A stretch of 64,000 nucleotides of DNA from IMG/VR virus record IMGVR_UViG_3300010388_000214, positions 31,626-95,625 of that record, one strand, 5' to 3'. The stretch is from a virus (Duplodnaviria > Caudoviricetes). The position numbers and the translations under genes were made by a program. Below are positions 611 to 12,158 of this stretch, one piece after another (position 1 is the first letter of the stretch; every line of letters begins with the position of its first letter). The notes below the pieces were generated by a model. That model had not been told where the DNA came from. It did no database searches and worked only from the letters and a program-made list of their open reading frames with translations.

Positions 611-701
611 TATTTCTGGGCGTTTTGTTACCCTATCGTAATCATTGCACAATGACTATATATATAGTTATAAACATTGGCGGCCCCCGATCCTGGTGGG
701 G

Positions 702-728
702 TAGGCAGTTTATTCTCATGCCTAGGAG
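702..728 (-). ncRNA. small H-type pseudoknot motif, copy 1
   Basis: CUC-CUAGGCAU-GAG-AAU-AAAC-UGCCUA, just 3' of the 736 stop. Confidence 0.65.
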
Positions 729-735
729 TGTCCGC

Positions 736-1755
736 CTATGCGGTAGCTAGTTGAACAACCTTGAGCAAACGGTTCTTCTCTGCGTTGATAGCAGGGTCAA
801 AGCCAGATGCGGAAGCCAAGACTGATTCGTTGTTACCCTTGCGACCAGAACGGTACCAGTCGAGACGCTCAGTCATTGCGTTGAACGCACCCCAAGCGGT
901 TCCACTAATCATGTGGTTGAACTCACCCTGATAGATGTCCTCAATCAGTTCCAGCTTGGTCTGCCACTTGGACAGAGAACCCTTAGAGTCTTTCTCTGGC
1001 ATGGGGTAAGCAAGAGCAACGATTTCGTCAAACTTAGCCTTAGAGATTTCAGTCTCAATCATAGCCTTTGCCATGATGTCGAATTCATCCATGTATGCGT
1101 TAGCAAGTCCCAAAGCCTCACGAGCTGCGATAACTTTACCCTCAGCGGTCTGAGTGTGACGAATCTTGAACGACTGCTTGATGTTACGGTTGCGACCTAC
1201 ACCACCACCGATAGCAAGGTTCAGAGTGTTAGCACAGACAACACGCACAGGGGTGATGCTTGCCTGAATCGCTACAGAACCGTCATGAGATGTGTTGACG
1301 AGGAGGTAGGTGTTTACCTTGTCACCAACACCGTTAGGGTCTAGGACAGTCTCACGCTCAAGAGCAATGGAACCAAACACCTGACGACCACCCTTGATAG
1401 AACCAGCAGTCTCCCAGCGACCACCACCGTCTAGGATGTTGTCACCAAATGAGAACAGGTCTTCATTCTGGAGGGTACGGTAACGCTCACCAACAACGCC
1501 AAGCACGTCAGTCTGCTTCTTGTCGAATGGGTTAGAGCGAGCAACAAAATAGTTAGTCTTGTCTGAGGTAAAGTTCTCAGGCATAGGGATTTCTTCAAGA
1601 CGAACATTCCAGTTGTCCAAGTGTGCCAACTCTAGCATCTTGGTTGTGTTTACTTCTTCCTCGAACACAGTACCCAAACCATGCCAAGCTGGTTCACGGA
1701 AAGAGGCAAAGGTAGTCTTGCCAGTTACTGAGTCGATTTCTAGTTCGTGTGCCAT
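736..1755 (-). CDS. DUF932-family (TIGR03299-like) phage/plasmid protein
   Basis: MAHELE...REPAWHGLG, ETAGSIKGGRQVF, SHDGS, TPVRVVCANTL and IRHT motifs. Confidence 0.85.
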   Translation of the reverse strand: MAHELEIDSVTGKTTFASFREPAWHGLGTVFEEEVNTTKMLELAHLDNWNVRLEEIPMPENFTSDKTNYFVARSNPFDKKQTDVLGVVGERYRTLQNEDLFSFGDNILDGGGRWETAGSIKGGRQVFGSIALERETVLDPNGVGDKVNTYLLVNTSHDGSVAIQASITPVRVVCANTLNLAIGGGVGRNRNIKQSFKIRHTQTAEGKVIAAREALGLANAYMDEFDIMAKAMIETEISKAKFDEIVALAYPMPEKDSKGSLSKWQTKLELIEDIYQGEFNHMISGTAWGAFNAMTERLDWYRSGRKGNNESVLASASGFDPAINAEKNRLLKVVQLATA

Positions 1756-1798
1756 GTGGCTACTTCTTTCTTTAGGGGATGAATTGCTTACTTATATA

Positions 1799-1827
1799 AG
1801 TATGACAGTGTTTAGCTATCTTGTCAA
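1799..1827 (-). promoter_or_regulatory. sigmaA-type promoter TTGACA-N17-CATACT
   Basis: consensus hexamers upstream of the DUF932 gene. Confidence 0.8.
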
Positions 1828-1897
1828 CCATCTGGGGGGTATTTTCTTACCTTCGTAATTAAACTGTTACATTCGGGGGGCCGCAGGGTATTTAGAG

Positions 1898-1927
1898 TGA
1901 GCAGTTTCAGATCAATGCTCAGGACCT
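1898..1927 (-). ncRNA. small pseudoknot motif, copy 2
   Basis: AGGUC-CUGAGCAUU-GAUCU-G-AAAC-UGCUCA. Confidence 0.65.
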
Positions 1928-1988
1928 GGCCTAGGGGAAAGAAAGGAATAAGAACCCTAGGCCATCATCGGTAACCCCTTACCGAGAA

Positions 1989-2183
1989 TTAAAACAAACG
2001 TTGCTTGTGGTCCAGAAAGGTACCAGTAATGAATGCACGTACATGTGCGTAAGCTTCTGCACGTCCTTCTTCATATGCAGCTTCGAAAGGACATCCGTCG
2101 GTCTCTTGTTCATTCATCGACTCAACAGCTTCGTCTTCCTTCTTGTGGAAGTACTGCAGCAGCTCAGATACTAGTTCATCCAT
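1989..2183 (-). CDS. hypothetical protein, 64 aa
   Basis: ORF track; TAATG coupling. Confidence 0.7.
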   Translation of the reverse strand: MDELVSELLQYFHKKEDEAVESMNEQETDGCPFEAAYEEGRAEAYAHVRAFITGTFLDHKQRLF

Positions 2184-2380
2184 TAGTTGCCTACGAATTC
2201 AACTACAGTGTCAGCTTCTTGGTACTCGACCATGTCAAGCTTTTCTTCAGTGATATCAAACTCAGGCCAGTAATCAGCATCCTCGTTACCCTGCGAGACG
2301 TGAAAGATTGCAAGAGCTTCGTCTTCACTGTCCGCCTGCACGGAATAGGTATTGCCAGATGTTATAAAGTATGTAGCCAT
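2183..2380 (-). CDS. acidic hypothetical protein (start MATYFIT)
   Basis: SD-like GAAGG before the ATG at 2380; A.s.eEA motif similar to 289..468. Confidence 0.7.
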   Translation of the reverse strand: MATYFITSGNTYSVQADSEDEALAIFHVSQGNEDADYWPEFDITEEKLDMVEYQEADTVVEFVGN

Positions 2381-2409
2381 GTTGGCCTTCTTTCTTTGTC
2401 GGTAATACA

Positions 2410-2439
2410 AGTATGACAGCTGTGGGGGGTATTTGTCAA
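2410..2439 (-). promoter_or_regulatory. sigmaA-type promoter TTGACA-N18-CATACT
   Basis: consensus hexamers; GTAAC-N6-GTTAC immediately upstream. Confidence 0.75.
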
Positions 2440-2520
2440 CCTTCGTAACCTAAACGTTACATTTGCGAGGGGCCGCCCAAATCCCCTAGCCATCACGACA
2501 AACGATCAACTAGGGGTGGG

Positions 2521-2584
2521 TGAGCAGTTTTTATTCCACCAGCATACTCAGGCTAATGAGGCAGTTTTATCTCATACCCAGGAG
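2521..2584 (-). ncRNA. tandem pseudoknot motifs, copies 3 and 4
   Basis: CUC-CUGGGUAU-GAG-AUA-AAAC-UGCCU, then AUUAGC-CUGAGUAU-GCUGGU-GGAAUAA-AAAC-UGCUCA. Confidence 0.65.
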
Positions 2585-2590
2585 TAATTA

Positions 2591-3034
2591 CTAGAGTAGG
2601 TCAATCACCGTGTTGTAGGTAGTTGCCGAGACTTCCTCCTGAGAGGTCATCTTCAGTACCTTTAGGTTACGCTCTAGCAGGGACTTGCGTGTCGTATACT
2701 CACGACCAAAGTGCTGTGACTCATTTGGCTTGCTTGGTTCTTTGGGTGCTTCTGGCAAACCAAGCAGGTCAGAGTTCACGCTAACACGAACAGAGTTACC
2801 GTATTCATTTGATACACGGATAGGCGAGTCATACTCGTTGCCAATTAGTTCTGGCTTACCAAGTGCTTTGATAACAGCCTCAACAACTGCTTTCTGGTGG
2901 TCTGCCTTAGCCTTGCGGTACTCCTCCATTTGAGCAGGGTACACAGCCAAGTCAGCCTCAATCTTAGCAAGAGATGCCTCAATGTCAGCAATGAGAGATG
3001 CGGTAGGGATTTTCACAGAGAGTGAACGAGCCAT
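2591..3034 (-). CDS. hypothetical actinophage protein, 147 aa
   Basis: ORF track; helical, phage-like composition. Confidence 0.8.
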   Translation of the reverse strand: MARSLSVKIPTASLIADIEASLAKIEADLAVYPAQMEEYRKAKADHQKAVVEAVIKALGKPELIGNEYDSPIRVSNEYGNSVRVSVNSDLLGLPEAPKEPSKPNESQHFGREYTTRKSLLERNLKVLKMTSQEEVSATTYNTVIDLL

Positions 3035-3073
3035 AATTGTTTATCTACTTTCTTATTTACTAGGGGTTAGTGT

Positions 3074-3106
3074 CTGGGTAGTTTAGACAGACATACCCAG
3101 GTCTGT
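3074..3106 (-). ncRNA. small pseudoknot motif, copy 5
   Basis: ACAGAC-CUGGGUAU-GUCUGU-CU-AAAC-UACCCAG. Confidence 0.7.
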
Positions 3107-3124
3107 TTTCCTTTTGGAAAGTGT

Positions 3125-3194
3125 GTAGGTGGGGGTCTGGCTAGACACGGCTACCTCTCGGAAACCAGACATTACGGGTAGCGAACCCACCTAC
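3125..3194 (-). ncRNA. intergenic structured RNA: pseudoknot closed by a 9-bp stem
   Basis: GTAGGTGGG/CCCACCTAC encloses the crossing helices GCTACC/GGTAGC and GTCTGG/CCAGAC. Confidence 0.55.
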
Positions 3195-3201
3195 GGTTAG
3201 A

Positions 3202-3348
3202 CTACTTTACGGTAGTCCAGCGAGTGTCACCGTTTGCGAGGGTGAGACGAACACGGCTTGAGCCAGTTGCGTTCTTCACGATTTCCTCAACGATACCCGA
3301 TACACCAGATGCCTGAGTGGTAAAGGTTTCTCCGATTACTGCGTTCAT
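3202..3348 (-). CDS. 48-aa beta-rich protein (MNAVIGETFTTQASGVSG...RWTTVK)
   Basis: manually translated; SD AAGGA; promoter at 3421-3449. Confidence 0.7.
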   Translation of the reverse strand: MNAVIGETFTTQASGVSGIVEEIVKNATGSSRVRLTLANGDTRWTTVK

Positions 3349-3420
3349 TTTATTACTGCTTCCTTGTAGTGAGCCAACTTTGACTGATTTGTTTTACCAA
3401 GTCGTTTACTTGATATATCT

Positions 3421-3449
3421 AGTATGACATCAAATCTGGGGGGTGTCAA
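3421..3449 (-). promoter_or_regulatory. sigmaA-type promoter TTGACA-N17-CATACT
   Basis: consensus hexamers. Confidence 0.8.
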
Positions 3450-3515
3450 GCCTTATCGTAACCTTTTTTATAACAGGTTGGTAACGGTCGGGGGCCGATC
3501 CCCGTTGGGGGTAGC

Positions 3516-4076
3516 CTATGAAGCACTACCCCGAACGATGACCCAGATAAGAGCTTGAGCAGTACGAGGTGTCAGACCAAACTCTCCTGCAACTTTACGC
3601 ACAGCACGAGACAGTTCTACATACTGAGACTGAGAGGGGGAGTCAGTTCCCAGGTTAGCTGCACGACACATCCAAATGTCAATAACTACAGCGTCTTTGT
3701 CACCTGCAATAGCACGAGCGAATGCATTAGTCTTTGGACCTTTGAGAGCGTCAAACCCTAAGTCAATGCTAGTCTGTGCCATTTTGTAGTTGTTAGGCAA
3801 ACCCTTTACCTCATGACCAAGCGAGAATGCAATAGCCTTAGAGATATTACTAGCCCAACGCTCACGAGGTGAGAATGCAGAGACAACGCTTGCACCAACT
3901 TCAAGTGTGGTGTTTAGGTTGCGAGCAACTTCTTCTGCAACTTCTTCTGCATCCCGATACCAGACACTAGCCTCTTCGACCTGACCGAGAGTAGCATTCA
4001 TGAGTAGGTTGCGATACATGCCAGTGTAGTTCTTGATACGGGTGGTTACTTCTGGCTTTACGATTGTGGTTGTCAT
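3516..4076 (-). CDS. phage protein, possibly HhH/DNA-glycosylase-like fold
   Basis: WY..A, SP...W..N, GPKT.AF, VVID.W and QA.IW motifs; the fold is a guess. Confidence 0.6.
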   Translation of the reverse strand: MTTTIVKPEVTTRIKNYTGMYRNLLMNATLGQVEEASVWYRDAEEVAEEVARNLNTTLEVGASVVSAFSPRERWASNISKAIAFSLGHEVKGLPNNYKMAQTSIDLGFDALKGPKTNAFARAIAGDKDAVVIDIWMCRAANLGTDSPSQSQYVELSRAVRKVAGEFGLTPRTAQALIWVIVRGSAS

Positions 4077-4219
4077 GGGGTGTTCCTTTCCTTATATAAA
4101 TAACTATACAGTTACCCACGGACATTTGCAAGGGTATTCTTAACTATCTTAATAACGAATAGGTAACGGATCAGCGGCCCCCGTGGGGGTAGAGAAGTCA
4201 ATCCCCACCCCCAATGGTA

Positions 4220-4702
4220 TTACCAAGAAGCCTGATATATAAATGAAATATCGCTTGTGATAGTTTTGTCTAGCAGAGTCTTCAACTCTTTCTTAGTACG
4301 CTTGAGGTCTTCCCAGTACCACTTGTCTATTTCAGTAGAACCAAAGAAGAAACCAGAAACAGGCTCTAACTCAGACGTATCTTTAGTTGCGATAACATCT
4401 GTAACAGTAAACAGCAACTCTTCCAACCTCTCACGGCTAACATAAACAGGCTGGCACTCGTCTACACCGTTAGCACAGTTAGTGATAAACCAGTTATGGA
4501 TTTGGTTAGACTTACGCCAATAGATAGCAGTCTCAGTTACAGACAGGCCAACGCTTTCGTCTGAGGCTAGGCTGTTGAGGTTTGAGGCGGTAAGAACTTC
4601 GAGATAGTCTCGGTTCTTCTCACGCTGATAGTCACCATCTACAACCTTGTAGTTGTTAGCAGGAATAAACTTACGGACTTCCAGGTACATATCGAGACCC
4701 AT
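4220..4702 (-). CDS. conserved phage protein (MGLDMYL...YWRK.NQIHNWF...YQASW type)
   Basis: recognisable widespread phage motifs; SD AAGGAG. Confidence 0.8.
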   Translation of the reverse strand: MGLDMYLEVRKFIPANNYKVVDGDYQREKNRDYLEVLTASNLNSLASDESVGLSVTETAIYWRKSNQIHNWFITNCANGVDECQPVYVSRERLEELLFTVTDVIATKDTSELEPVSGFFFGSTEIDKWYWEDLKRTKKELKTLLDKTITSDISFIYQASW

Positions 4703-4755
4703 TAGGGACTCCTTTCTTTTGAGGTTTGGTTACAGTTTAGCAGTACCCACGGACA

Positions 4756-4920
4756 TTAGTCAAGGTCATCTACTAAAATAATTTCTTTGTTGAACTGGAT
4801 TGCTTCCTCTAGCATATGGAGCATACCCAATTCTTTTGAGGTCAGGTTGTGGGTGGTGAACAGGTCTGTGGGGGTACCAGTCTCAGTGTCCACTACTCGG
4901 ATAAATAGGTCTAGTGCCAT
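4756..4920 (-). CDS. 54-aa hypothetical protein
   Basis: manually translated; TAATG-coupled. Confidence 0.55.
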   Translation of the reverse strand: MALDLFIRVVDTETGTPTDLFTTHNLTSKELGMLHMLEEAIQFNKEIILVDDLD

Positions 4921-5123
4921 TAGTTCTTATACTCCCTAATTGTAAATTCTTCTGTACCGTTTTCTAGTGCATCTTCATATTCTTCGACAGTACTGAAATA
5001 ATAAAACACACCGTCGTCATTTACTTCTGAGTAATCAGTAATAAAGTCATCAGAGATAACGACATAAGTAAAAAACTCGTCTCGTGGGTCATCTCGCCAA
5101 GTGACTAGGACTTCCTTTTCCAT
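4920..5123 (-). CDS. acidic hypothetical protein, 67 aa
   Basis: ORF track; SD AAGGAG; coupled. Confidence 0.7.
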   Translation of the reverse strand: MEKEVLVTWRDDPRDEFFTYVVISDDFITDYSEVNDDGVFYYFSTVEEYEDALENGTEEFTIREYKN

Positions 5124-5284
5124 TATGCATACTCCTTGATTGCTCGGTTCTTTACAGTGCTACGGGTTCGCAGTCTGTTTGGTCGGTTGTCATGTGTGCC
5201 AGAGGCATTGGACTTACGCAGTTCACGCATACCAATAATGTATGCCGTGTTCTGAATTTTCTGGGGTGGTTTCGCTTTCTTCAT
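5123..5284 (-). CDS. 53-aa basic leaderless protein (…ELRKSNASG.H..RPNRLRTR…)
   Basis: manually translated; ATG just downstream of a -10 CATAAT. Confidence 0.65.
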   Translation of the reverse strand: MKKAKPPQKIQNTAYIIGMRELRKSNASGTHDNRPNRLRTRSTVKNRAIKEYA

Positions 5285-5346
5285 AAACTAATTATGACAT
5301 GACCCACTGACATTCCCGATTTTGGGGGGCCGCCCGAAGGCCCATT

Positions 5347-5469
5347 CTAGATGAATTCGAATGGGTCTCGGTCTTGGAAGATATCCTCGAAGTCCTGCAT
5401 GGTATATGCTCCAGGGTTAGCCATGTAGTCTCGGTAGTCTGCCATGATCTCTTCTGCTTGCTCGTCCAT
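5347..5469 (-). CDS. 40-aa acidic protein
   Basis: manually translated; SD GAGG. Confidence 0.55.
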   Translation of the reverse strand: MDEQAEEIMADYRDYMANPGAYTMQDFEDIFQDRDPFEFI

Positions 5470-5470
5470 A

Positions 5471-5659
5471 TTATCCTCTCCTAGGTTTTGCTTTTAGTTC
5501 TCCACGGTGGAATCTAGTTACAAACTCTCTCGCTGCTGGCCAGTACTCTAGGTTGAATGCTCGCTCATTATGCATCTCAACCATATCCAAGGCTAGCTGT
5601 TCGATTAGCTTGCGGTCAGTAATGATTACTGGCTTTATGTATGTCTCACGCTTAGTCAT
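5471..5659 (-). CDS. hypothetical protein, 62 aa
   Basis: ORF track; coupled. Confidence 0.65.
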   Translation of the reverse strand: MTKRETYIKPVIITDRKLIEQLALDMVEMHNERAFNLEYWPAAREFVTRFHRGELKAKPRRG

Positions 5660-5940
5660 TAGTCTAACTCACTCTCGATAATCCACATACCCAAGCGGTA
5701 TGACTCAACGATATCCCAAGCCTTGACCCACTCACTGCCACGGAATGTAACACCCTCTGGCAACTTGATTTTGAGGTGACCCTCTCCGTCATTCACGGTG
5801 TCAATAGCCTCGACTGCTGTATCAACCATCTGCTGAGGAATTGGAGGATAGCAATTCGTCTGGAAGTGTAGGCTAATTTGCTGTTCAAGTGTGAAGCCTA
5901 GTTCGTCATCTTGAAGTGCTAGTGCTGATAAGTTTCCCAT
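5659..5940 (-). CDS. hypothetical actinophage protein, 93 aa
   Basis: ORF track; SD AAGGA; own promoter. Confidence 0.75.
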   Translation of the reverse strand: MGNLSALALQDDELGFTLEQQISLHFQTNCYPPIPQQMVDTAVEAIDTVNDGEGHLKIKLPEGVTFRGSEWVKAWDIVESYRLGMWIIESELD

Positions 5941-6053
5941 TAGTTTTCCTTTTCTTTTGATACTATAAACCTATCACAAGCCACGGACATTATCAACGTA
6001 ATCGTAAGATCTTTTGGTAACAGTTAGATAACGAAGGGCCGCCTCGCACTCCC

Positions 6054-6179
6054 CTAGAAGGGGAGCTTGAGGTTTTTGTTTGCTTCTTTTAGTTCGTTTA
6101 TCTCATTACGCTGAGCAACGATAATGATACCAGCAATGATTAGGCTGAACCACATACCCCAGAACAATAGGTCTAGCAT
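6054..6179 (-). CDS. 41-aa single-TM membrane protein
   Basis: MLDLLFWGMWFSLIIAGIIIV...; SD GGAGG. Confidence 0.55.
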   Translation of the reverse strand: MLDLLFWGMWFSLIIAGIIIVAQRNEINELKEANKNLKLPF

Positions 6180-6367
6180 TAGTTTACCTCCACCTTGTAG
6201 CAAGCGTCTACAAACTTTACAGCCAAGAAACGGTCATTGTCCTCAGCAAACATAGCACAGAAGTCGTTCACCATATTGTCAAACTTTTCTTCCAAGCCAA
6301 TAGACATTTCCTGGTAGAAGTCGTTCAGGATTTCAGCGGTAGCAACGTAGTCTTTACGTGTCATCAT
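6179..6367 (-). CDS. small phage protein (MTRKDY..A..L...F..DN.RF...KF..AC type)
   Basis: ORF track; recognisable motif. Confidence 0.75.
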   Translation of the reverse strand: MMTRKDYVATAEILNDFYQEMSIGLEEKFDNMVNDFCAMFAEDNDRFLAVKFVDACYKVEVN

Positions 6368-6385
6368 TTTATTTATTTCCTATTC

Positions 6386-6541
6386 TTAGTTAGCGAATGT
6401 GTCGAGAATGTTTTTGTAGGCGTCACGCTTACCGATAAAGTAAGACTTAGAGAGTTCCGAGGCGTAAGGGTCTGCGATGAAGTCATCAGCAATTTTGATT
6501 AGTTCGTTCAGAACCTTTACGGAGAGTGTTACAGTTGTCAT
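6386..6541 (-). CDS. 51-aa hypothetical protein
   Basis: manually translated; SD AAGGA; promoter upstream. Confidence 0.6.
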   Translation of the reverse strand: MTTVTLSVKVLNELIKIADDFIADPYASELSKSYFIGKRDAYKNILDTFAN

Positions 6542-6655
6542 TAGTTTTCCTTTCGTTATGTCTAAAGTCTATACCCACCCACTGACATTCTCAACCCCGA
6601 CACGCCGTGTTTCTTAAACTTTCTTAAAACTTTTTTGGCGATCGGGGGCCGCTTC

Positions 6656-6904
6656 CTAGTAGTCGTCTCCATAGAAGCCACCATCGTTTGCTCCACCGTA
6701 GTCCTCGTCGTCACCCCAGCCAGCAGAGGCAAGAGCATCGGCATCCATCCAGGACTCGTCAGACCAGTCGTCTGCGGAGTCAGCGAAGAGGTCTTCCTCA
6801 CGCTGGTCCTCGTCGGTCAGGAAGATAAGTTCGTTGTCCTCCCCGAGGATTGCGTCTGCCAAGACAGAGGTGTCGAACTCTTCGATTGCGAGAATGTTGG
6901 TCAT
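6656..6904 (-). CDS. extremely acidic 82-aa protein (DADALASAGWG.DEDYG motif)
   Basis: ORF track; SD AAGGA; very D/E-rich. Confidence 0.75.
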   Translation of the reverse strand: MTNILAIEEFDTSVLADAILGEDNELIFLTDEDQREEDLFADSADDWSDESWMDADALASAGWGDDEDYGGANDGGFYGDDY

Positions 6905-7018
6905 GAGTTTTCCTTTCGTTGTAAAACAAATCTAACACAAACCACAGACATTTTCAAGCGGTTTGCAGCGTTTATCTTAATTAACTTAATAACTTTTTGG
7001 TAACGACGGGGGGCCGCC

Positions 7019-7037
7019 TGTGTATAACTTATCCACA
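7019..7037. promoter_or_regulatory. inverted pair of DnaA boxes (TGTGTATAA c TTATCCACA)
   Basis: both match TTATNCACA. Confidence 0.75.
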
Positions 7038-7039
7038 GG

Positions 7040-7207
7040 TTAACATTCGGGGTACATTCCATAAATTACCTGTGGGAATACCCCAGGAATATCCCTAGAG
7101 TTGTCGATAATTATCTGAGCTTCCTCACGGGTAAAGACAATCTGTGACATTATGTCTTGGAATGTCTTTTCATCTCTTAGAGTTATTTCATAGCCTAGCT
7201 TTTCCAT
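7040..7207 (-). CDS. 55-aa hypothetical protein
   Basis: manually translated; coupled. Confidence 0.55.
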   Translation of the reverse strand: MEKLGYEITLRDEKTFQDIMSQIVFTREEAQIIIDNSRDIPGVFPQVIYGMYPEC

Positions 7208-7344
7208 TACTTGAGACCCTTTCCTGCTGGGTGGAGAGCAATAGCACGCTCTAACTCACGGTGCTTTCGCAACTCAGCAAGTGAGGTGTTGTAGTGAGCA
7301 AATTTAGTCTTGAAGCCACATTCTGGGCAAGTGTACTGAGTCAT
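7207..7344 (-). CDS. 45-aa putative Zn-binding protein (YTCPECG...H...HPAGKG)
   Basis: manually translated; SD AAGGA. Confidence 0.6.
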   Translation of the reverse strand: MTQYTCPECGFKTKFAHYNTSLAELRKHRELERAIALHPAGKGLK

Positions 7345-7393
7345 TTCAATTTCCTTTTCTTTGTTATCTAAAGTCTAGCGGTACCCACGGACA

Positions 7394-7540
7394 TTATGCC
7401 TTGAAGGCAGACATTGCCACAATTTTAGTTGTGTACATTTTCTTGGCAATTGCCTGAGCGTGCCAAGTGTTGGAAGCCATAGCGAATACGGTGAAACGCT
7501 CACCTGTTGCTAACTTACCTGAGACTTTGTATTCAATCAT
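7394..7540 (-). CDS. 48-aa hypothetical protein
   Basis: manually translated; SD AGGA; promoter upstream. Confidence 0.55.
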   Translation of the reverse strand: MIEYKVSGKLATGERFTVFAMASNTWHAQAIAKKMYTTKIVAMSAFKA

Positions 7541-7599
7541 TTTTATTTCCTAACTCTTAGTTTCTTTATATCTAAACTCTACACCCACCCACGGACATT

Positions 7600-7749
7600 C
7601 TAACTGTTGTAGTCGAAACATACATTCTGGTTAGGATATTCCAATTCGAATTCTTTACGCTTAGCGTCTACGGTATCGCGATCGCGACCCCAGAATTCGT
7701 TTAGCAACTTTCCAGTTCCTCTTTCAATTACTTGTACAATCCACATATT
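7600..7749 (-). CDS. hypothetical protein (likely start near MWIVQVIE)
   Basis: part of track ORF 7600..7809; SD AAGGA; start approximate. Confidence 0.5.
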   Translation of the reverse strand, partial: NMWIVQVIERGTGKLLNEFWGRDRDTVDAKRKEFELEYPNQNVCFDYNS

Positions 7750-7854
7750 TGGATTCCTTTCTCTTAGATTCTTTTTCTTACTTTCTTTATATCTAAAGTC
7801 TATACCCACCCACTGACATTTTGGGGTGCGACACGCCGTAACGTAAGAAAAAAC

Positions 7855-7914
7855 TTATCCACAAAGTTATCCACAGGGGGCCGCCAAATCGGCGGTATGT
7901 CAAGTGACACGCCG
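7855..7914. repeat. ~60-bp module A: two DnaA boxes, GGGGGCCGCC hairpin, TGTCAA, GACACGCCG
   Basis: near-identical to 8390-8451; related to 8963-9025. Confidence 0.85.
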
Positions 7915-8094
7915 TTAGTCACCAATCATTTTACGATAGGCGTTGAAGACATCCTTGTCAGTGTACTGACTCTGTGCCGATAGCAATTCGTCATACTTAG
8001 CCTGACTTGCTTTCCAGATACGACCGTCATCTGACATAGCATCTTCAAAAGCACGCATCTTTGCCGATAGTAGGCTTTTCATTAGTTCATCCAT
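7915..8094 (-). CDS. hypothetical protein (start MDELMKS)
   Basis: SD AAAGGA before 8094. Confidence 0.65.
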   Translation of the reverse strand: MDELMKSLLSAKMRAFEDAMSDDGRIWKASQAKYDELLSAQSQYTDKDVFNAYRKMIGD

Positions 8095-8110
8095 TTTGGA
8101 ATCCTTTCTT

Positions 8111-8254
8111 TTAGTTACGAACACGGCTAATTGAAACCGAGTAAAAGTCATCACGAGCATAAGCCCGTTCGATGGCTTCGGCTTCATTGAAACCTACGAA
8201 CATAGTTTCGTGAACGAAACCACCATCTTTTTCTTTGATAATTACTTTGAACAT
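8111..8254 (-). CDS. hypothetical protein (start MFKVIIKE)
   Basis: SD AAGGAG before 8254. Confidence 0.65.
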   Translation of the reverse strand: MFKVIIKEKDGGFVHETMFVGFNEAEAIERAYARDDFYSVSISRVRN

Positions 8255-8389
8255 TTTAGTTCTCCTTTCTAAGAGACTTTCTTTTTTATTTCCATATTTA
8301 GTTTTTCTTTCTATATTTACATAGTAACAGTACCCACTGACATTTTGGGGCATTTTCGGGGGGTTTTTGGTAACGGAATTATAACGAAG

Positions 8390-8451
8390 TTATACACAGA
8401 GTTATCCACAGGGGGCCGCCAATTTTGGCGGTATGTCAAGTCGACACGCCG
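8390..8451. repeat. module B: TTATACACA and TTATCCACA, GC hairpin, TGTCAA, GACACGCCG
   Basis: direct sequence comparison with module A. Confidence 0.85.
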
Positions 8452-8793
8452 TTAGTCCCAATAACTACTATTGGATCGACCATATGAGTTAGTCCACCAG
8501 GTAGGCACACTGTATTCGTTATCGATTGATTCTGTAGTTGTTTCATTATCCATATTAGTTATCTTCTTTCATTAGTTCTACTTGTACGCCTAGCAGTTCT
8601 TCTGCTGACATATCCTCTATATCGATTACACCTTCTGGTGTGAGTATCTTGAAGAATCCCATTAGAATTCGCAACCATATGCGTCTAGGCATATCTTGCA
8701 GGATTCTTCCTGACATTCATTACAGAATACTGATTCTGTATAGTTATCACAGATATCGCAAAACGCTAATCCAATTTCATTTAGTAAGTTCAT
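8452..8793 (-). CDS. three closely packed micro-ORFs: 8662-8793 (Cys-rich), 8555-8662, 8452-8553
   Basis: manually translated; SD AAGGAG; TAATG or 1-nt junctions. Confidence 0.5.
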
Positions 8794-8962
8794 TATGAAC
8801 TCCTTTCTTTAGTGAGAATCTTATTTGCTTATTTCTAAGGCTCATATTCTCTATTTATTTTTTCTTTCTTTCTTTATATTATCAGTCTATACCCTATCCC
8901 AGAAAAAGCAAGCCCAAAAGCCACAAAATTTCAGCCTATTTTTTGTAGGCTACTTACAAGAG

Positions 8963-9025
8963 TTATCCACATAGTTATCCACAGGCGGCCCCTCATTTGC
9001 CAGGGTATGTCAAGGCAACACGCCG
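8963..9025. repeat. module C: two TTATCCACA, GCGGCCCC (flipped), TGTCAA, AACACGCCG
   Basis: direct sequence comparison with modules A and B. Confidence 0.8.
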
Positions 9026-9091
9026 ATGATGATAAGAATAGTATTGATCAGTAGCAAGGCTATACATACCCACCCTGCTACCCCACCTACC

Positions 9092-9217
9092 CTATCCAAG
9101 AGACCACACACCCAAGATGAATGCATAGAAGCCTAGCATTATCAAGAACATCATTCCTGTATAGACAATGCCACGAACAAATCCACGTACGAGATAGTAT
9201 AGCTTAGAGTGTTCCAT
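9092..9217 (-). CDS. 41-aa membrane protein
   Basis: manually translated; hydrophobic; coupled. Confidence 0.55.
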   Translation of the reverse strand: MEHSKLYYLVRGFVRGIVYTGMMFLIMLGFYAFILGVWSLG

Positions 9218-9429
9218 TAGAACTCCTTCGATTCAATGTGTTCCCATACTGCACCAACAAGACCACCAAGGCAAGAGACAGCAACTACACCAAGCATCCA
9301 AGTGATAGCAATCGGTGCCATACTCTGAGTGATAGGAGTGTAGTCAATGCTTGATGCCCAATCGAATGAGAAGGCAAAGCTTGTGATGAAGAGTGATGCT
9401 AGTACAATCATTAGTGCTACGAGTTTCAT
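9217..9429 (-). CDS. two-TM membrane protein, 70 aa
   Basis: two hydrophobic segments; SD AAGGA. Confidence 0.7.
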   Translation of the reverse strand: MKLVALMIVLASLFITSFAFSFDWASSIDYTPITQSMAPIAITWMLGVVAVSCLGGLVGAVWEHIESKEF

Positions 9430-9608
9430 TTTCTGTCCTTTGTTATTTCCTGATATATATATTCAATCACGACCCACGGACAATGTCAAGCGACACGCCG
9501 TGTGCTCACTAAAAAGTACCCCCCACCCAGTACTCAAATCATGTATCGTACATCTTTAAAAATTATTCAGATTTTCTGTAATTCTGATTTTCAAAATTTT
9601 TCAGATTT

Positions 9609-10352
9609 TTACTCAACAACGTTTTTACGGATCTCAGACAGAACCATCTCTGGCATCATAGACTGCTCTGAGTGCTGGTAGCGATAATCCAAAGTCTTGT
9701 TGCGGCCATAGATGTTTGGTGAGTTACTAGTCTCCTTAGTCAGAGCAAGTAGATTCTCGTTAAACATGTAACGCTTAAACACAACCTTCTTGTCAGTCAT
9801 GATCTCAAGGAAGAACAGTGGGTCATCCTCTTTGACTGAAAACTTTCGGGTAGTCTTAGGAATGTGGTAATCCAAGTTCCAAGAGCGATACCACTTACCA
9901 ATATTAAACTCTCCTGGTGACATACGTGCACCTTCCATTGGTGATACAGCAGGAAAGTATGGAGCTGTAAATCTAGCTACGACTGGTTCTGATGAAAAGA
10001 ACAACCATGATAGATTATAGATAACATCAATTTGGTCGGGGAAGCTAGAAGGTCTCTCATGATACATTCCTGCAATAGACTTTACATTCATACGAGGACT
10101 CTTTGCTGGGTCTGGTTCGTTCTCAAAGTAATAGTCTGGAATTTCAAATTCGTCATCGATAGCTGATCTAAATACAAACACATTGTCTAATGTATTTCGT
10201 GCAGCAGGACATTGCGACATAAGAGATCCAGGAATCTTCTCACGATGAAGGTTTGTATAAACATTCTCTGGTTTGCGATACAGCATAGCCATAGACTCTG
10301 TGCTTGGCATGTAGTTTGCTGGTGCCCAGTAGATCGTAATTTCTTCTGACAT
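9609..10352 (-). CDS. hypothetical phage protein, 247 aa
   Basis: long ORF; beta-rich; function not recognised. Confidence 0.75.
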   Translation of the reverse strand: MSEEITIYWAPANYMPSTESMAMLYRKPENVYTNLHREKIPGSLMSQCPAARNTLDNVFVFRSAIDDEFEIPDYYFENEPDPAKSPRMNVKSIAGMYHERPSSFPDQIDVIYNLSWLFFSSEPVVARFTAPYFPAVSPMEGARMSPGEFNIGKWYRSWNLDYHIPKTTRKFSVKEDDPLFFLEIMTDKKVVFKRYMFNENLLALTKETSNSPNIYGRNKTLDYRYQHSEQSMMPEMVLSEIRKNVVE

Positions 10353-10535
10353 TTATGGTAGCTTCAACTCGGGGGTAGACTTAATCAAGTTATAAGTCAA
10401 AGCCCATTTATTTATAAGCTTATAAGACACATGTAGATCCTTAGCGATCTGTCGAACTGTCTTGGTTTGTAGCTGTTCAGCTAGCCAGGTCTTATCCTGA
10501 TAGTATTTGACGTATCCGTCTTTCATTGTTTCCAT
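10353..10535 (-). CDS. small helix-turn-helix DNA-binding protein
   Basis: KTVRQIAKDLHVSYKLINKW HTH pattern; SD AAGGAG. Confidence 0.7.
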   Translation of the reverse strand: METMKDGYVKYYQDKTWLAEQLQTKTVRQIAKDLHVSYKLINKWALTYNLIKSTPELKLP

Positions 10536-10617
10536 ATTCTCTCCTTTATGGTTTGGTATCTAAATTTTATCAGACACTATTTCTTTTTGCAAGTACAGGT
10601 ATCTCCACACATAAACG

Positions 10618-10818
10618 TCACCACTTCCCCATAGGGCATACGGCCTTCTCTAACGTTGTTTTGAGCTTCATGTAACATCCACACTTACGACATTTTGTTA
10701 GACGCTTATCTAGCCACTCACAGCCTTTACAAATTTCTAAACGCTGCTCAATGAGTTCTCTATCTGATCTCGGTTGTGATGGATCAAACAGATCTGTAAA
10801 CTTTACGTCTTTGGCCAT
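10618..10818 (-). CDS. small Cys-rich protein (DUF6171-like)
   Basis: R..IC..C...C..CGC.M..K......CP.GKW. Confidence 0.7.
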   Translation of the reverse strand: MAKDVKFTDLFDPSQPRSDRELIEQRLEICKGCEWLDKRLTKCRKCGCYMKLKTTLEKAVCPMGKW

Positions 10819-10830
10819 ACATCTATTTTA

Positions 10831-10989
10831 TCACGTCTTAAGCATTGAGTTCAGATAATTCATTTCGTGCTCTGCACTAACAAAGCCAGTGCCTTCAGTG
10901 GTCTTACAGTCTACACAAAATTTAATAATCATGTATCCGCCATTGTGGCTATCGGTTTGACCTATTTTCCAATTATGTTTACAATCCAT
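10831..10989 (-). CDS. 52-aa protein (C.H.W...C..C)
   Basis: manually translated; leaderless after TGA-TATAGT. Confidence 0.5.
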   Translation of the reverse strand: MDCKHNWKIGQTDSHNGGYMIIKFCVDCKTTEGTGFVSAEHEMNYLNSMLKT

Positions 10990-11059
10990 AATCTACTATA
11001 TCAAATTTTCGACGGTATCAATCAGCTTGTCTGATTCCGAAGGAGGCATTGTCCACAAA

Positions 11060-11130
11060 AGGATAACTCCCCATAATCGGTCATAGTATTAAACCAATAT
11101 ATATCTGATCTATGCCGTATGAGGAGCTAT
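11060..11130 (-). ncRNA. putative structured sRNA 3
   Basis: promoter TTGACA(11161-66)/TACAAT(11137-42); long imperfect stem 11067-85 with 11110-26. Confidence 0.4.
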
Positions 11131-11172
11131 AGATATATTGTACACCCATTTGAAAAGGTTTGTCAAGGTTTG

Positions 11173-11243
11173 AAAGAAAAACCCCTAGCCGTAAATTAGA
11201 ATGTGAGATCTACGGTTAGGGGAGCTTGGTTTTCTTGACTGGG
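11173..11243 (-). ncRNA. putative ~70-nt sRNA 2
   Basis: TGA-TATAAT at 11250-58; 12-bp hairpin 11182-11222 followed by a U-tract. Confidence 0.5.
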
Positions 11244-11257
11244 ACTTCTATTATATC

Positions 11258-11412
11258 AAAAGAAAATCCCCCACCTGCCGCAGCCTCCGATGGGGGATCC
11301 AATAGGTCGTCGGCTTTCGCAGAGGTCTCTATTGTTACTCTTTGTGGGAAGGACTTCCTTCACCATGATGTGGCCTAGTAAACTACGCCGAGAAGGACCT
11401 TGTCTTCTCATT
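11258..11412 (-). ncRNA. putative ~150-nt structured sRNA 1
   Basis: TTGCAA-N17-TATAAT (11419-47); several nested helices; terminator 11266-98 with U-tract. Confidence 0.5.
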
Positions 11413-11480
11413 AATACGATTATAGCAAAGAAAATCTCCCCTTGCAAGCAGAGGGGGAGATCGAGACAATTCTATTGTAG

Positions 11481-11551
11481 CACCCCACCGAGGAATTGAA
11501 CCCCGTCCAACAGGTTTGGAATCTGTCATGCTGCCGTAACACTTGTGAGAT
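11481..11551 (-). tRNA. tRNA-Trp (CCA); 3' CCA not encoded
   Basis: acceptor ATCTCAC/GTGGGGT, anticodon loop TTCCAAA, T-arm CGGGG-TTCAATT-CCTCG, discriminator G. Confidence 0.85.
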
Positions 11552-11610
11552 AGACAACCTAGCCACCGTAGATCCTAAGATTTCCTGCGTAGCTAGGTCT
11601 TAACATATTA

Positions 11611-11639
11611 ATTATAGCAAATATTTTTACACATTGCAA
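11611..11639 (-). promoter_or_regulatory. promoter TTGCAA-N17-TATAAT for the tRNA unit
   Basis: consensus with extended TG. Confidence 0.75.
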
Positions 11640-11951
11640 TAACATGTAAAGAAAATCGCAAAAACTTTACATATCGCCTAACATGTCTTATGTCAAATGA
11701 AAGACAACTTTACTTTGTAGAAAACAAATGAAAGCTAAATGAGGTTTACTTTCATTTAATGCCTTATATAGTCGTCATAAAGTTGGTTAATGCCTGTTAT
11801 ATTCGTCATTATTCAACTATTCGGGATTTCCGAACAGTTCACTTATTCGGTTTTTCCGAACAACTCAAATCAGTACGTACCTTCCGAAAACCAGGAAAAG
11901 TTGGTGTCAAACCACAATAATTGGTTTAAATCGGAACGAACATTCTTATCT

Positions 11952-11989
11952 GTTACCATTTCGTTATCATTCTGTTACATATCTGTAAC
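11952..11989. repeat. four GT[T/A]A[C/T] pentamers at exact 11-bp period
   Basis: GTTAC-N6-GTTAT-N6-GTTAC-N6-GTAAC. Confidence 0.75.
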
Positions 11990-12158
11990 ATTTACCCATA
12001 TTCAAACCATATCTCGGATTCTGGGAGGTTAAGGTTTGAGGTTTGGGTATGTAATTCTCACCGCGAACTTTACGCCGTCGAGCTTTGCGATGCTTATTCA
12101 TCTTAGTTATCAACATGTTGTGGATAACTTTTAAAAAGGACACTATAATAGTAATATC

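Follow-up and report, generated by a model that had tools for sequence, protein, structure and literature searches.

In the 64,000-nucleotide (nt) window analysed here, bases 31626-95625 of the 95,625-base-pair (bp) IMG/VR virus record IMGVR_UViG_3300010388_000214, the spacers between the small genes of the leftward arm carry exact copies of the sites of two host regulators, WhiA and DnaA. These exact sites suggest that the phage ties its gene expression and its replication to the cell cycle of its host. Judged by the motif matches, the WhiA-type and DnaA sites are probably host-factor sites, and binding of host DnaA at the phage boxes is likely. To the fuller reading, in which host WhiA and DnaA bind their sites and a WhiB-family protein of the phage is the partner at promoters with a WhiA box, we give an even chance. 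A preliminary description of this DNA had reported three motif classes, assigned to DnaA, to MtrA or GlnR and to WhiA, and had proposed that the phage reads or sequesters the host cell-cycle circuit; we likewise infer that it may do one or the other. Positions in the window carry the prefix w and those in the full record the prefix g.

Enrichment in w627-12127 was tested against 300 dinucleotide-preserving shuffles. The DnaA box TTATCCACA was observed seven times (0.12 expected), pairs of the form GT[AT]A[CT]-N6-GT[AT]A[CT] (GTWAY pairs) 14 times (0.43 +/- 0.73 expected), the strict form GTWAC-N6-RTWAC eight times (0.21 expected) and CGGCGTGTC five times (0.03 expected), and none of the 300 shuffles reached any of these counts. 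The bare words GACAC (23 observed, 22.1 expected) and GTNAC (106 observed, 92.8 expected) are not enriched in this region, hence they are not meaningful alone; in each case the real unit is longer, a 10-mer for GACAC and a phased pair for GTNAC. Neither is the MtrA-type word GTCACA enriched there (3 observed, 7.1 expected), and the Streptomyces-type box TTGTCCACA stays at chance level (1 observed, 0.14 expected, reached by 39 of the 300 shuffles).

The three motif classes do sit where they had been described, with coordinates exact to the base, from the start of the first GTnAC pair at w627 to the end of the last DnaA box at w12127. The reported span of the GTnAC-type sites from 0.6 to 8.4 kb was found again (w627 to w8385), to which an array at w11952-11989 and a pair at w12595-12626 can be added, and GACAC adjoins -35 hexamers at six sites between 6.6 and 9.5 kb (w6598 to w9500). 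The statement that all three classes share the same spacers holds for one spacer (w8257-8452), whereas three others contain only two of the classes. All six WhiA-type boxes and all paired DnaA boxes are intergenic, as read from the sequence with a gene table based on ribosome-binding sites. The matches to published motifs discussed below rest on consensus strings quoted in the text of the papers.

WhiA-type and DnaA boxes and their conservation

The unit behind GACAC is the 10-mer CGACACGCCG, of which the region holds four exact copies and two copies with one mismatch, all six with the GACAC core and all on the minus strand. The box at w6598..6607 reads CGGCGTGTCG on that strand (CGACACGCCG on the plus strand) and precedes by 3 nt the -35 hexamer (TTGAGA) of a promoter of class A, one of two promoter classes described in the last section. 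Exact boxes at w7829..7838 and w9491..9500 also lie upstream of class A promoters, with cores at w7809-7818 and w9473-9482, and the second of them stands 1 nt upstream of TTGACA. The other three boxes head composite modules: the box at w7905..7914 (one mismatch, TGACACGCCG on the plus strand) begins directly behind a stop codon, with TTGACA, a GC hairpin and tandem DnaA boxes next in order, the exact box at w8442..8451 heads the same order of TTGACA, hairpin and DnaA pair, and the box at w9016..9025 (one mismatch, CAACACGCCG on the plus strand) heads the third module.

According to PMC13473873, chromatin immunoprecipitation sequencing (ChIP-seq) of WhiA in Mycobacterium tuberculosis gives the consensus GACACGCC, IDAP-seq with purified WhiA gives the same 8-mer, and ChIP-seq of WhiB2 yields the same motif. 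The same source quotes CGACACGCCGn as the top WhiA motif of an earlier large ChIP study and cGACACGc from a one-hybrid study in M. smegmatis. The logo of the phage family is (a)CGGCGTGTCG, with the reverse complement CGACACGCCG(t), i.e. CGACACGCCGt, so that, letter for letter, the phage 10-mer is equal to the longest published mycobacterial WhiA form at 10/10 positions.

A search with the DUF932 protein (w736-1755) gave at least 214 relatives in IMG/VR, and conservation was assessed in 80 of these loci, taken together with up to 10 kb of flanking sequence (33-45% GC, 1.34 Mb in total). Of the words present in many copies in this set, the 10-mer CGACACGCCG is the most enriched; among multi-copy 9-mers, CGACACGCC (245 copies, spread over 67 of the 80 loci) and GTGGATAAC (308 copies, over 71 loci) are the strongest. 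The WhiA-type 8-mer GACACGCC has 284 sites against 9 for the reversed word, and TTATCCACA has 394 against 14; 6% and 4% of the sites, respectively, fall inside open reading frames (ORFs) of at least 100 amino acids, which cover 42% of the bases. The 11 relatives that are at least 90% complete give 50 against 5 for GACACGCC and 80 against 9 for TTATCCACA, with the sites clustered in one arm. The boxes are fixed among relatives while the intervening sequence diverges; thus relative L007 retains CGGCGTGTCG, TTGACA and CCCCCTGTGGATAACTnTGTGGATAAG, and the stretch between differs.

In 77 of the 237 unique GGCGTGTC contexts TTGAC starts 2-5 nt downstream of the WhiA-type box (58 of them at offset 3), and on the control side it does so in none of the 237. 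As TTGAC occurs on the downstream side only, the position of the box would fit an activator. A DnaA box lies within 45 nt downstream in 54 of these contexts. The phage has a candidate for the second partner, a WhiB-family protein at g13656-13940 (43.9 bits in a profile search, cut-off 23.6), which was found in all 11 complete relatives and above the cut-off in 17 of the 26 records searched, the misses being mostly fragments. A six-frame search of the phage gave no DnaA domain IV, WhiA helix-turn-helix, Trans_reg_C (OmpR-type) or sigma-70 region 4. None of the papers listed by literature searches describes WhiA sites in phage genomes by title or abstract, and the word 'WhiA' is absent from the text of a survey of phage WhiB proteins (PMC8612146).

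The exact DnaA boxes TTATCCACA are at w7029-7037, 7855-7863, 7867-7875, 8402-8410, 8963-8971, 8975-8983 and 12119-12127, and partners with one mismatch are at w7019-7027, 8390-8398 and 12107-12115. They form five pairs. At w7019..7037 the two boxes stand back-to-back (TTATACACA on the minus strand, TTATCCACA on the plus strand). Three pairs are plus-strand tandems with a 12-bp period, namely two exact TTATCCACA boxes at w7855..7875, TTATACACA followed by TTATCCACA at w8390..8410, and again two exact boxes at w8963..8983. The pair at w12107..12127 converges, with TTATCAACA on the plus strand, 3 nt, and TTATCCACA on the minus strand, and overlaps the -35 of the first rightward promoter (TGGATA-17-TATAAT, w12121-12149). 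The whole record has 12 exact boxes, 11 of which lie within g29275-43752.

The DnaA logo of the phage, aAGTTATCCACAGGtt, agrees with the DnaA consensus at 9/9 positions. In 81 sequences, the spacings of boxes on the same strand cluster at 11 (30 cases), 12 (54), 33 (11), 42 (11) and 55 (6) bp, as expected for a protein that binds one face of the helix. The flanked form of the box in the phage is AGTTATCCACAGG, like that in the box cluster upstream of dnaB in metagenome-assembled genome (MAG) G027, which we used only as a stand-in actinobacterium; this freshwater MAG is titled 'uncultured Aquiluna sp.' and may contain mis-binned contigs. Between rplI and dnaB it has a cluster of seven exact boxes within 175 bp (L092 (C41), 6160-6340), with flanks (A/G)GTTATCCACAG(G) that match the phage logo aAGTTATCCACAGG, and the cluster includes the word CGGCGTGTT. 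Across 81 genomes of the class of this MAG the 11-mer GTTATCCACAG was counted 221 times (220 if the unpublished genome G041 is left out) and its reversed control 15 times. As for the WhiA 10-mer, one of the four CGACACGCCG copies in the MAG lies 40 nt upstream of the rapZ-whiA operon, and a further copy, located between two MerR-family genes, has a DnaA box at a distance of 3 nt (L095 (C16), about 2107, and L093 (C30), about 3075).

Just left of the window, g29150-29650 contains a non-coding stretch of 450 bp that looks like an origin: it combines an AT-rich core with iterons of the sequence AGGTTTG, two opposed groups of DnaA boxes (five boxes in total) and GGATATGGGG repeats. The relatives have CTCCACT iterons and tandem boxes in the same place. 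Among the papers listed by a broad literature search, none mentions DnaA boxes in actinophages, which is weak evidence of absence. Of the cultivated distant relatives, the Streptomyces phage BillNye has four TTATCCACA boxes within 119428-119715 and Yaboi a small cluster at 118726-118758. These clusters make the DnaA part of the idea open to laboratory test.

Phased GTTAC repeats

The third motif class is a half-site cGTTA(C/T)c repeated every 11 bp and placed 40-90 nt ahead of class A and class B promoters alike. In a scan of spacings from 0 to 15, N6 gave 14 pairs and every other spacing 0-3. Three pairs lie upstream of class B promoters: GTTAC-N6-GTAAT at w627..642 (promoter w582-610), GTAAC-N6-GTTAC at w2445..2460, which ends 5 nt upstream of the -35 TTGACA, and cGTTACc-N4-tGTTATa on the minus strand at w3470..3485, with a third GTTAC further on (promoter w3421-3449). 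The pair at w1855..1870 has the same 11-bp period and reads TGTAACAGTTTAATTACGAAGG on the minus strand. Also on the minus strand are cGTTACc-N4-cGTTATt at w4152..4167, upstream of a class A promoter, cGTTATc-N4-tGTTACc at w6017..6032, cGTTACc-N4-aGTTATt at w6989..7004, which adjoins the back-to-back DnaA pair, and cGTTATa-N4-cGTTACc at w8370..8385, in the sole spacer with all three classes. The array at w11952..11989, between the diverging gene arms, consists of four 11-bp-phased GTTAC, GTTAT or GTAAC units.

The published MtrA consensuses are c-G-T/A-n-A-C/T-c repeats with 4 nt between them for M. tuberculosis, n-A/G-T-a-A-C-a for Corynebacterium glutamicum and GTnACC-N5-GTnAC for Streptomyces coelicolor, and the phage form cGTTACc-N4-cGTTAYy is compatible with all three. 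Like the MtrA boxes of these species, the phage sites are GTnAC(c) direct repeats with an 11-bp period upstream of promoters; they differ in that the phage half-site (cGTTAYc) is more specific than the loose published consensus, and in that the repeats are not uniform in relatives, the strict GTWAC-N6-RTWAC being mostly confined to the nearest ones. MtrA is a possible binder of the GTTAC repeats. Since the extended DnaA box opens with the six bases GTTATC, we also infer that the repeats may be weak DnaA sites.

The GlnR box has the form gTnAc-n6-GaAAc, with two half-sites that differ from each other. A GlnR reading finds no support here, as the second half-site is GTTAY and not GAAAC, and as GTNAC-N6-GNNAC is not enriched (4 observed, 1.34 expected, reached by 23 of the 300 shuffles). 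Of the regulators originally named, WhiA and DnaA are supported by motif match, MtrA more weakly because its consensus is loose, and GlnR is not supported.

A further repeated site was seen in the relatives. The CRP/GlxR-type palindrome TGTGA-N6-TCACA has 315 copies in 68 of the 80 related loci, 5% of them inside ORFs of at least 100 amino acids; TGTGA and TCACA are never found at N5, N7 or N8, and six times at N4. It often adjoins WhiA-type boxes in the relatives, and the own record has none.

Candidate mechanism, alternatives and known systems

The leftward arm would be divided into many short transcription units, and its spacers would combine a recurring set of modules, namely a GC patch with its terminator-like hairpin, upstream sites, the promoter itself (sigma-A-type, class A or B) and a conserved leader that contains a ribosome-binding site. 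Host WhiA would bind CGGCGTGTCG, which is set 1-3 nt before the -35, and would assist or gate RNA polymerase, with the WhiB-family protein of the phage as the likely bridge to sigma-A region 4. Host DnaA would bind the phased AGTTATCCACAGG pairs and the origin-like region left of the window, where it may start phage replication, block or end read-through at gene ends, or repress the first promoter of the rightward arm; DnaA might also be titrated by the growing number of phage copies. The phased cGTTACc repeats may be sites of a winged-helix response regulator, for which host MtrA would be the best, though a weak, candidate. Tentatively, and with more doubt than confidence, we speculate that a whole, widespread family of freshwater actinophages, with at least 214 IMG/VR relatives, is wired to host regulators in this way: WhiA and phage WhiB would switch on a subset of promoters, DnaA would fire the origin and gate or insulate the transcription units, an MtrA-type regulator would act at the upstream repeats here and a CRP/GlxR-type regulator at the palindromes in relatives, and the multiplying genomes would drain these regulators and stall division and replication of the host.

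Several observations weigh against the proposed role of host WhiA, DnaA and MtrA. The true binders could lie among the phage's own small proteins, about 40 of which have no characterised function. TGTCnGTGGGT, more common in the region than any other motif, matches none of WhiA, DnaA and MtrA/GlnR. The phage WhiB is nearest by sequence to WhiB7 and WhiB1 chains and not to the WhiB partner of WhiA. Three of the six WhiA-type boxes, those of the composite modules, precede a TTGACA with no recognisable -10 at 16-19 nt. In the cultivated relatives the WhiA box is scattered without clear enrichment (Coruscant 6 against 0, Yaboi 1 against 1, BillNye 5 against 6), and in the small low-GC genome of MAG G027 the 10-mer CGACACGCCG is not enriched genome-wide (4 against 7), a count that is uninformative. 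The MtrA consensus is loose and holds little information, and in relatives the 211 pairs at N6 stand beside 119-131 at N1, N7 and N13, so the peak is less clear. The repeats within the genome are also partly paralogous modules. As the natural variants recombine at these repeats, copy number overstates independent selection.

The geometry of the WhiA-type box is a further such point. In the known complex the C-terminal domain of WhiA reads GACAC and WhiB bridges WhiA to sigma-A region 4; in the solved complex at sepX, WhiB occupies the 7 bp adjoining the -35, and GACAC lies further upstream on the non-template strand (PMC10243135). The phage box is 3-4 bp from the -35 with GACAC on the template strand. 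The same source reports that strand and spacing of WhiA sites differ among targets.

All of the repeated motifs might instead be operators for proteins encoded by the phage, their likeness to host sites being coincidence, or mimicry without binding of a host factor. The sites are indeed oriented, intergenic and present in many copies, TGTCnGTGGGT has nine copies on one strand, all within promoters and with no known host match, and the phage encodes two proteins with weak helix-turn-helix matches (w10353-10535 and g19690-20112) besides dozens of small proteins of no assigned function. We nevertheless find this explanation rather unlikely: two independent motifs equal a full host consensus, DnaA at 9/9 and the extended WhiA form at 10/10 positions, a third exact consensus, TGTGA-N6-TCACA, is abundant in relatives at N6 (315 copies) and absent at N5, N7 and N8, and three such coincidences are improbable. 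In addition, the flanks of the phage DnaA boxes match the bacterial ones, and the phage lacks homologues of the DNA-binding domains of DnaA, WhiA, OmpR-type regulators and sigma-70 region 4. A narrower account would have the DnaA boxes as replication elements only, for origin function or helicase loading, with the rest as ordinary phage promoter architecture and no cell-cycle panel. It draws on the helically phased boxes, on the DnaB-like helicase and DNA polymerase that the phage itself encodes, and on the origin-like g29150-29650 with its iterons, AT-rich core and five boxes, which has similar counterparts in relatives; but the pairs in the window are spread over four spacers and one promoter and not gathered in one origin, DnaA boxes follow WhiA-type boxes at up to 45 nt in the 54 contexts counted above, a pairing met also in MAG G027, and the WhiA-type box at -35 hexamers would be left unexplained. 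This account appears to us improbable.

It is also conceivable, at a very low probability, that the modules serve mainly as recombination substrates, i.e. as linkers for cassette swaps whose sequence is kept by gene conversion and not by protein binding. Over w5900-9600, contigs from other freshwater metagenomes delete or replace single cassettes, with joints exactly at repeated modules: 7905->8451 with AGACACGCCGT between, 8426->8959, and, with 144 and 153 other letters inserted respectively, 7209->7349 and 7581->7743. Recombination at repeats is, however, expected regardless of function; the short boxes are invariant in relatives where the sequence between has diverged, as in L007, and regulatory regions of bacteria carry this 10-mer and this 11-mer too. 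Both the replication-only and the recombination account explain no more than parts of what was observed. Compared with these alternatives we prefer binding of the WhiA-type and DnaA boxes by the host proteins, at the strength given at the outset.

DnaA boxes occur in phage and plasmid origins, and datA of Escherichia coli is a DnaA-titrating cluster. The phage resembles these in its perfect 9-mers in phased groups, in the origin-like iterons and AT-rich core and in a possible titration; it differs in that the pairs are dispersed, some in promoter spacers and some at gene ends, are coupled with WhiA-type boxes and belong to an actinophage. Cluster A mycobacteriophages have multi-copy oriented repressor sites ('stoperators'), and T4-like phages have promoter/stem-loop cassette linkers. 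Many oriented, short, asymmetric sites between small genes and an exchange of cassettes at repeats are common to these systems and the present one; in them the binder is a phage protein or is not known, whereas here two motifs equal the consensus of host factors.

Conceptually, the nearest parallel would be the phages with CtrA sites, and mechanistically the WhiA/WhiB activation complex and DnaA-dependent origins. CtrA sites are conserved in the promoters of a group of phages of Alphaproteobacteria, where the phage programme is timed to the state of the host (PMC9437464). Here too, by sequence, the promoters of a phage carry sites of host cell-cycle regulators, in another phylum and for other regulators, with several side by side and with a likely co-factor, WhiB, encoded by the phage. 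With WhiA/WhiB at sepX of S. venezuelae and the WhiA/WhiB2 regulon of M. tuberculosis the phage sites share the GACAC core and its extensions GACACGCC and CGACACGCCGn, and, as in that dual activation, the box lies upstream of a sigma-A -35 and a WhiB-family protein is available; unlike there, it is phage DNA that carries the sites, and the WhiB is the phage's own, of WhiB7/WhiB1 likeness.

The function of WhiB in the phage life cycle was called 'largely enigmatic' in a 2021 survey (PMC8612146). WhiB genes are a hallmark of actinophages, and in this family a core WhiB gene goes together with an exact WhiA box at the promoter -35. From this arises the testable question of whether host WhiA and phage WhiB jointly activate these promoters. 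If so, phage WhiB proteins would gain a first defined molecular job, and the sensing of a host cell-cycle master regulator by phages, for which CtrA is the precedent, would be widened to the Actinomycetota and to several regulators together. The hosts of these phages are freshwater bacteria that are abundant but hard to grow.

Promoters, spacers and the phage setting

On the minus strand a typical spacer consists of a stop codon, a terminator-like hairpin or GC patch, upstream sites, a promoter, and a conserved leader with AAAGGA before the ATG. Class A promoters have a variable -35, the core (A/T)TGTCnGTGGGT, 5 nt and a TAnnnT -10, often with an upstream TG. There are nine strict copies, all on the minus strand within w4115-9482, plus two degenerate ones, and none elsewhere in the record. 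The cores TGTCnGTGGG, located in the -35/-10 spacer, are at w4115..4124, 4746..4755, 5303..5312, 6578..6587, 7384..7393, 7588..7597, 7809..7818, 8333..8342 and 9473..9482; that at w6578..6587 belongs to the full promoter TTGAGA-ATGTCAGTGGGTGGGTA-TAGACT. This core is the commonest motif of the region and was absent from the motifs listed in the preliminary description. Class B promoters, TTGACA-17/18-(TG)TCATACT, have four copies within w582-3449, all on the minus strand: TTGACA-17-CATACT at w582..610, TTGACA-17-TGTCATACT at w1799..1827 and w3421..3449, and TTGACA-18-TGTCATACT at w2410..2439.

The composite module, found in three spacers (w7850-7914, 8385-8451 and 8960-9030), joins a WhiA-type box, TTGACA, a short GC hairpin, CCCC and two DnaA boxes 12 bp apart. 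It was considered as a promoter and ruled out, as no -10 is present at 16-19 nt. GC-rich patches carry the word GGCGGCCCC, which occurs seven times (0.02 expected) between terminator-like hairpins and GTTAC repeats or DnaA boxes, one of them in the patch GGGGGGCCGCC at w7001..7018. Folded as possible terminators, the patches gave a mixed picture: in only three of the 12 spacers was the fold clearly better than that of shuffled sequence (z from about -2.4 to -1.8), and GGCGGCCCC itself usually falls outside the stem. A minus-strand hairpin CCTGAGCA-N10-12-TGCTC was seen after stop codons near w705-730, 1895-1925 and 2525-2560, and also in relatives; AAACTGCTC has 238 copies in 77 of the 80 loci, 228 of them on the forward strand, and the hairpin may be a terminator or an RNA-processing element.

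The record has an estimated completeness of 88%, and the GC content of the window is about 43%. It is best explained as an actinophage of roughly 100 kb and lytic type. The leftward arm (w1-12150) comprises about 40 very small genes with clear ribosome-binding sites, and from w12159 the rightward genes follow in the order lysis, tail, head and replication. The portal (w30959-32596) is 47-49% identical to portals of Streptomyces phages of the Stanwilliamsviridae (Coruscant, Yaboi, BillNye), and the order portal, small protein, protease is as in those phages. The presence of WhiB marks Actinomycetota and the phages that infect them (PMC10202952, PMC8612146), and low-GC freshwater actinobacteria are known, likewise phages of about 45% GC that infect them. 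An actinobacterial host is likely, being made plausible by the WhiB gene, the Stanwilliamsviridae-like portal and the -10 hexamers of TAGACT type.

Megablast of w1-12500 against cultured phages gave no match; apart from possible source samples, the matches to the stretch come mainly from freshwater metagenomes of several studies. Host assignment was attempted through the phage WhiB in bacterial genomes. This gave four contigs (61-76% identity), binned in freshwater MAGs titled Methylococcus, Chitinophagaceae, Polynucleobacter and Aquiluna; all four look like phage contigs and therefore assign no host. Contigs from RNA libraries (two runs of one study) are short and fall on w5900-6542, 8332-8661 and 8891-9223; being contigs, they can show neither transcription, starts nor strand.

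The left arm of the record (g1-25000) holds auxiliary genes, among them a C-terminal end of RecA, cut by the record end, and genes for NrdI, NrdE and NrdF (class Ib), dCMP deaminase, ThyX, Hsp20 and WhiB, together with a 665-amino-acid double glycosyltransferase and an FkbM-type methyltransferase. In the window, w6656-6904 encodes on the minus strand a very Asp/Glu-rich protein of 82 amino acids with no Pfam match, which resembles a DNA mimic or anti-restriction protein. An Rfam scan of w1-13000 gave tRNA-Trp only. This tRNA (w11480-11551) is the predicted product of one of three back-to-back units on the minus strand of w11100-11700, each a terminator followed by an extended -10 (TTTGCTATAAT or TTTGATATAAT); the other two predicted products are putative small RNAs with no Rfam match, one of about 150 nt at about w11265-11415 and one of about 70 nt at about w11180-11250.

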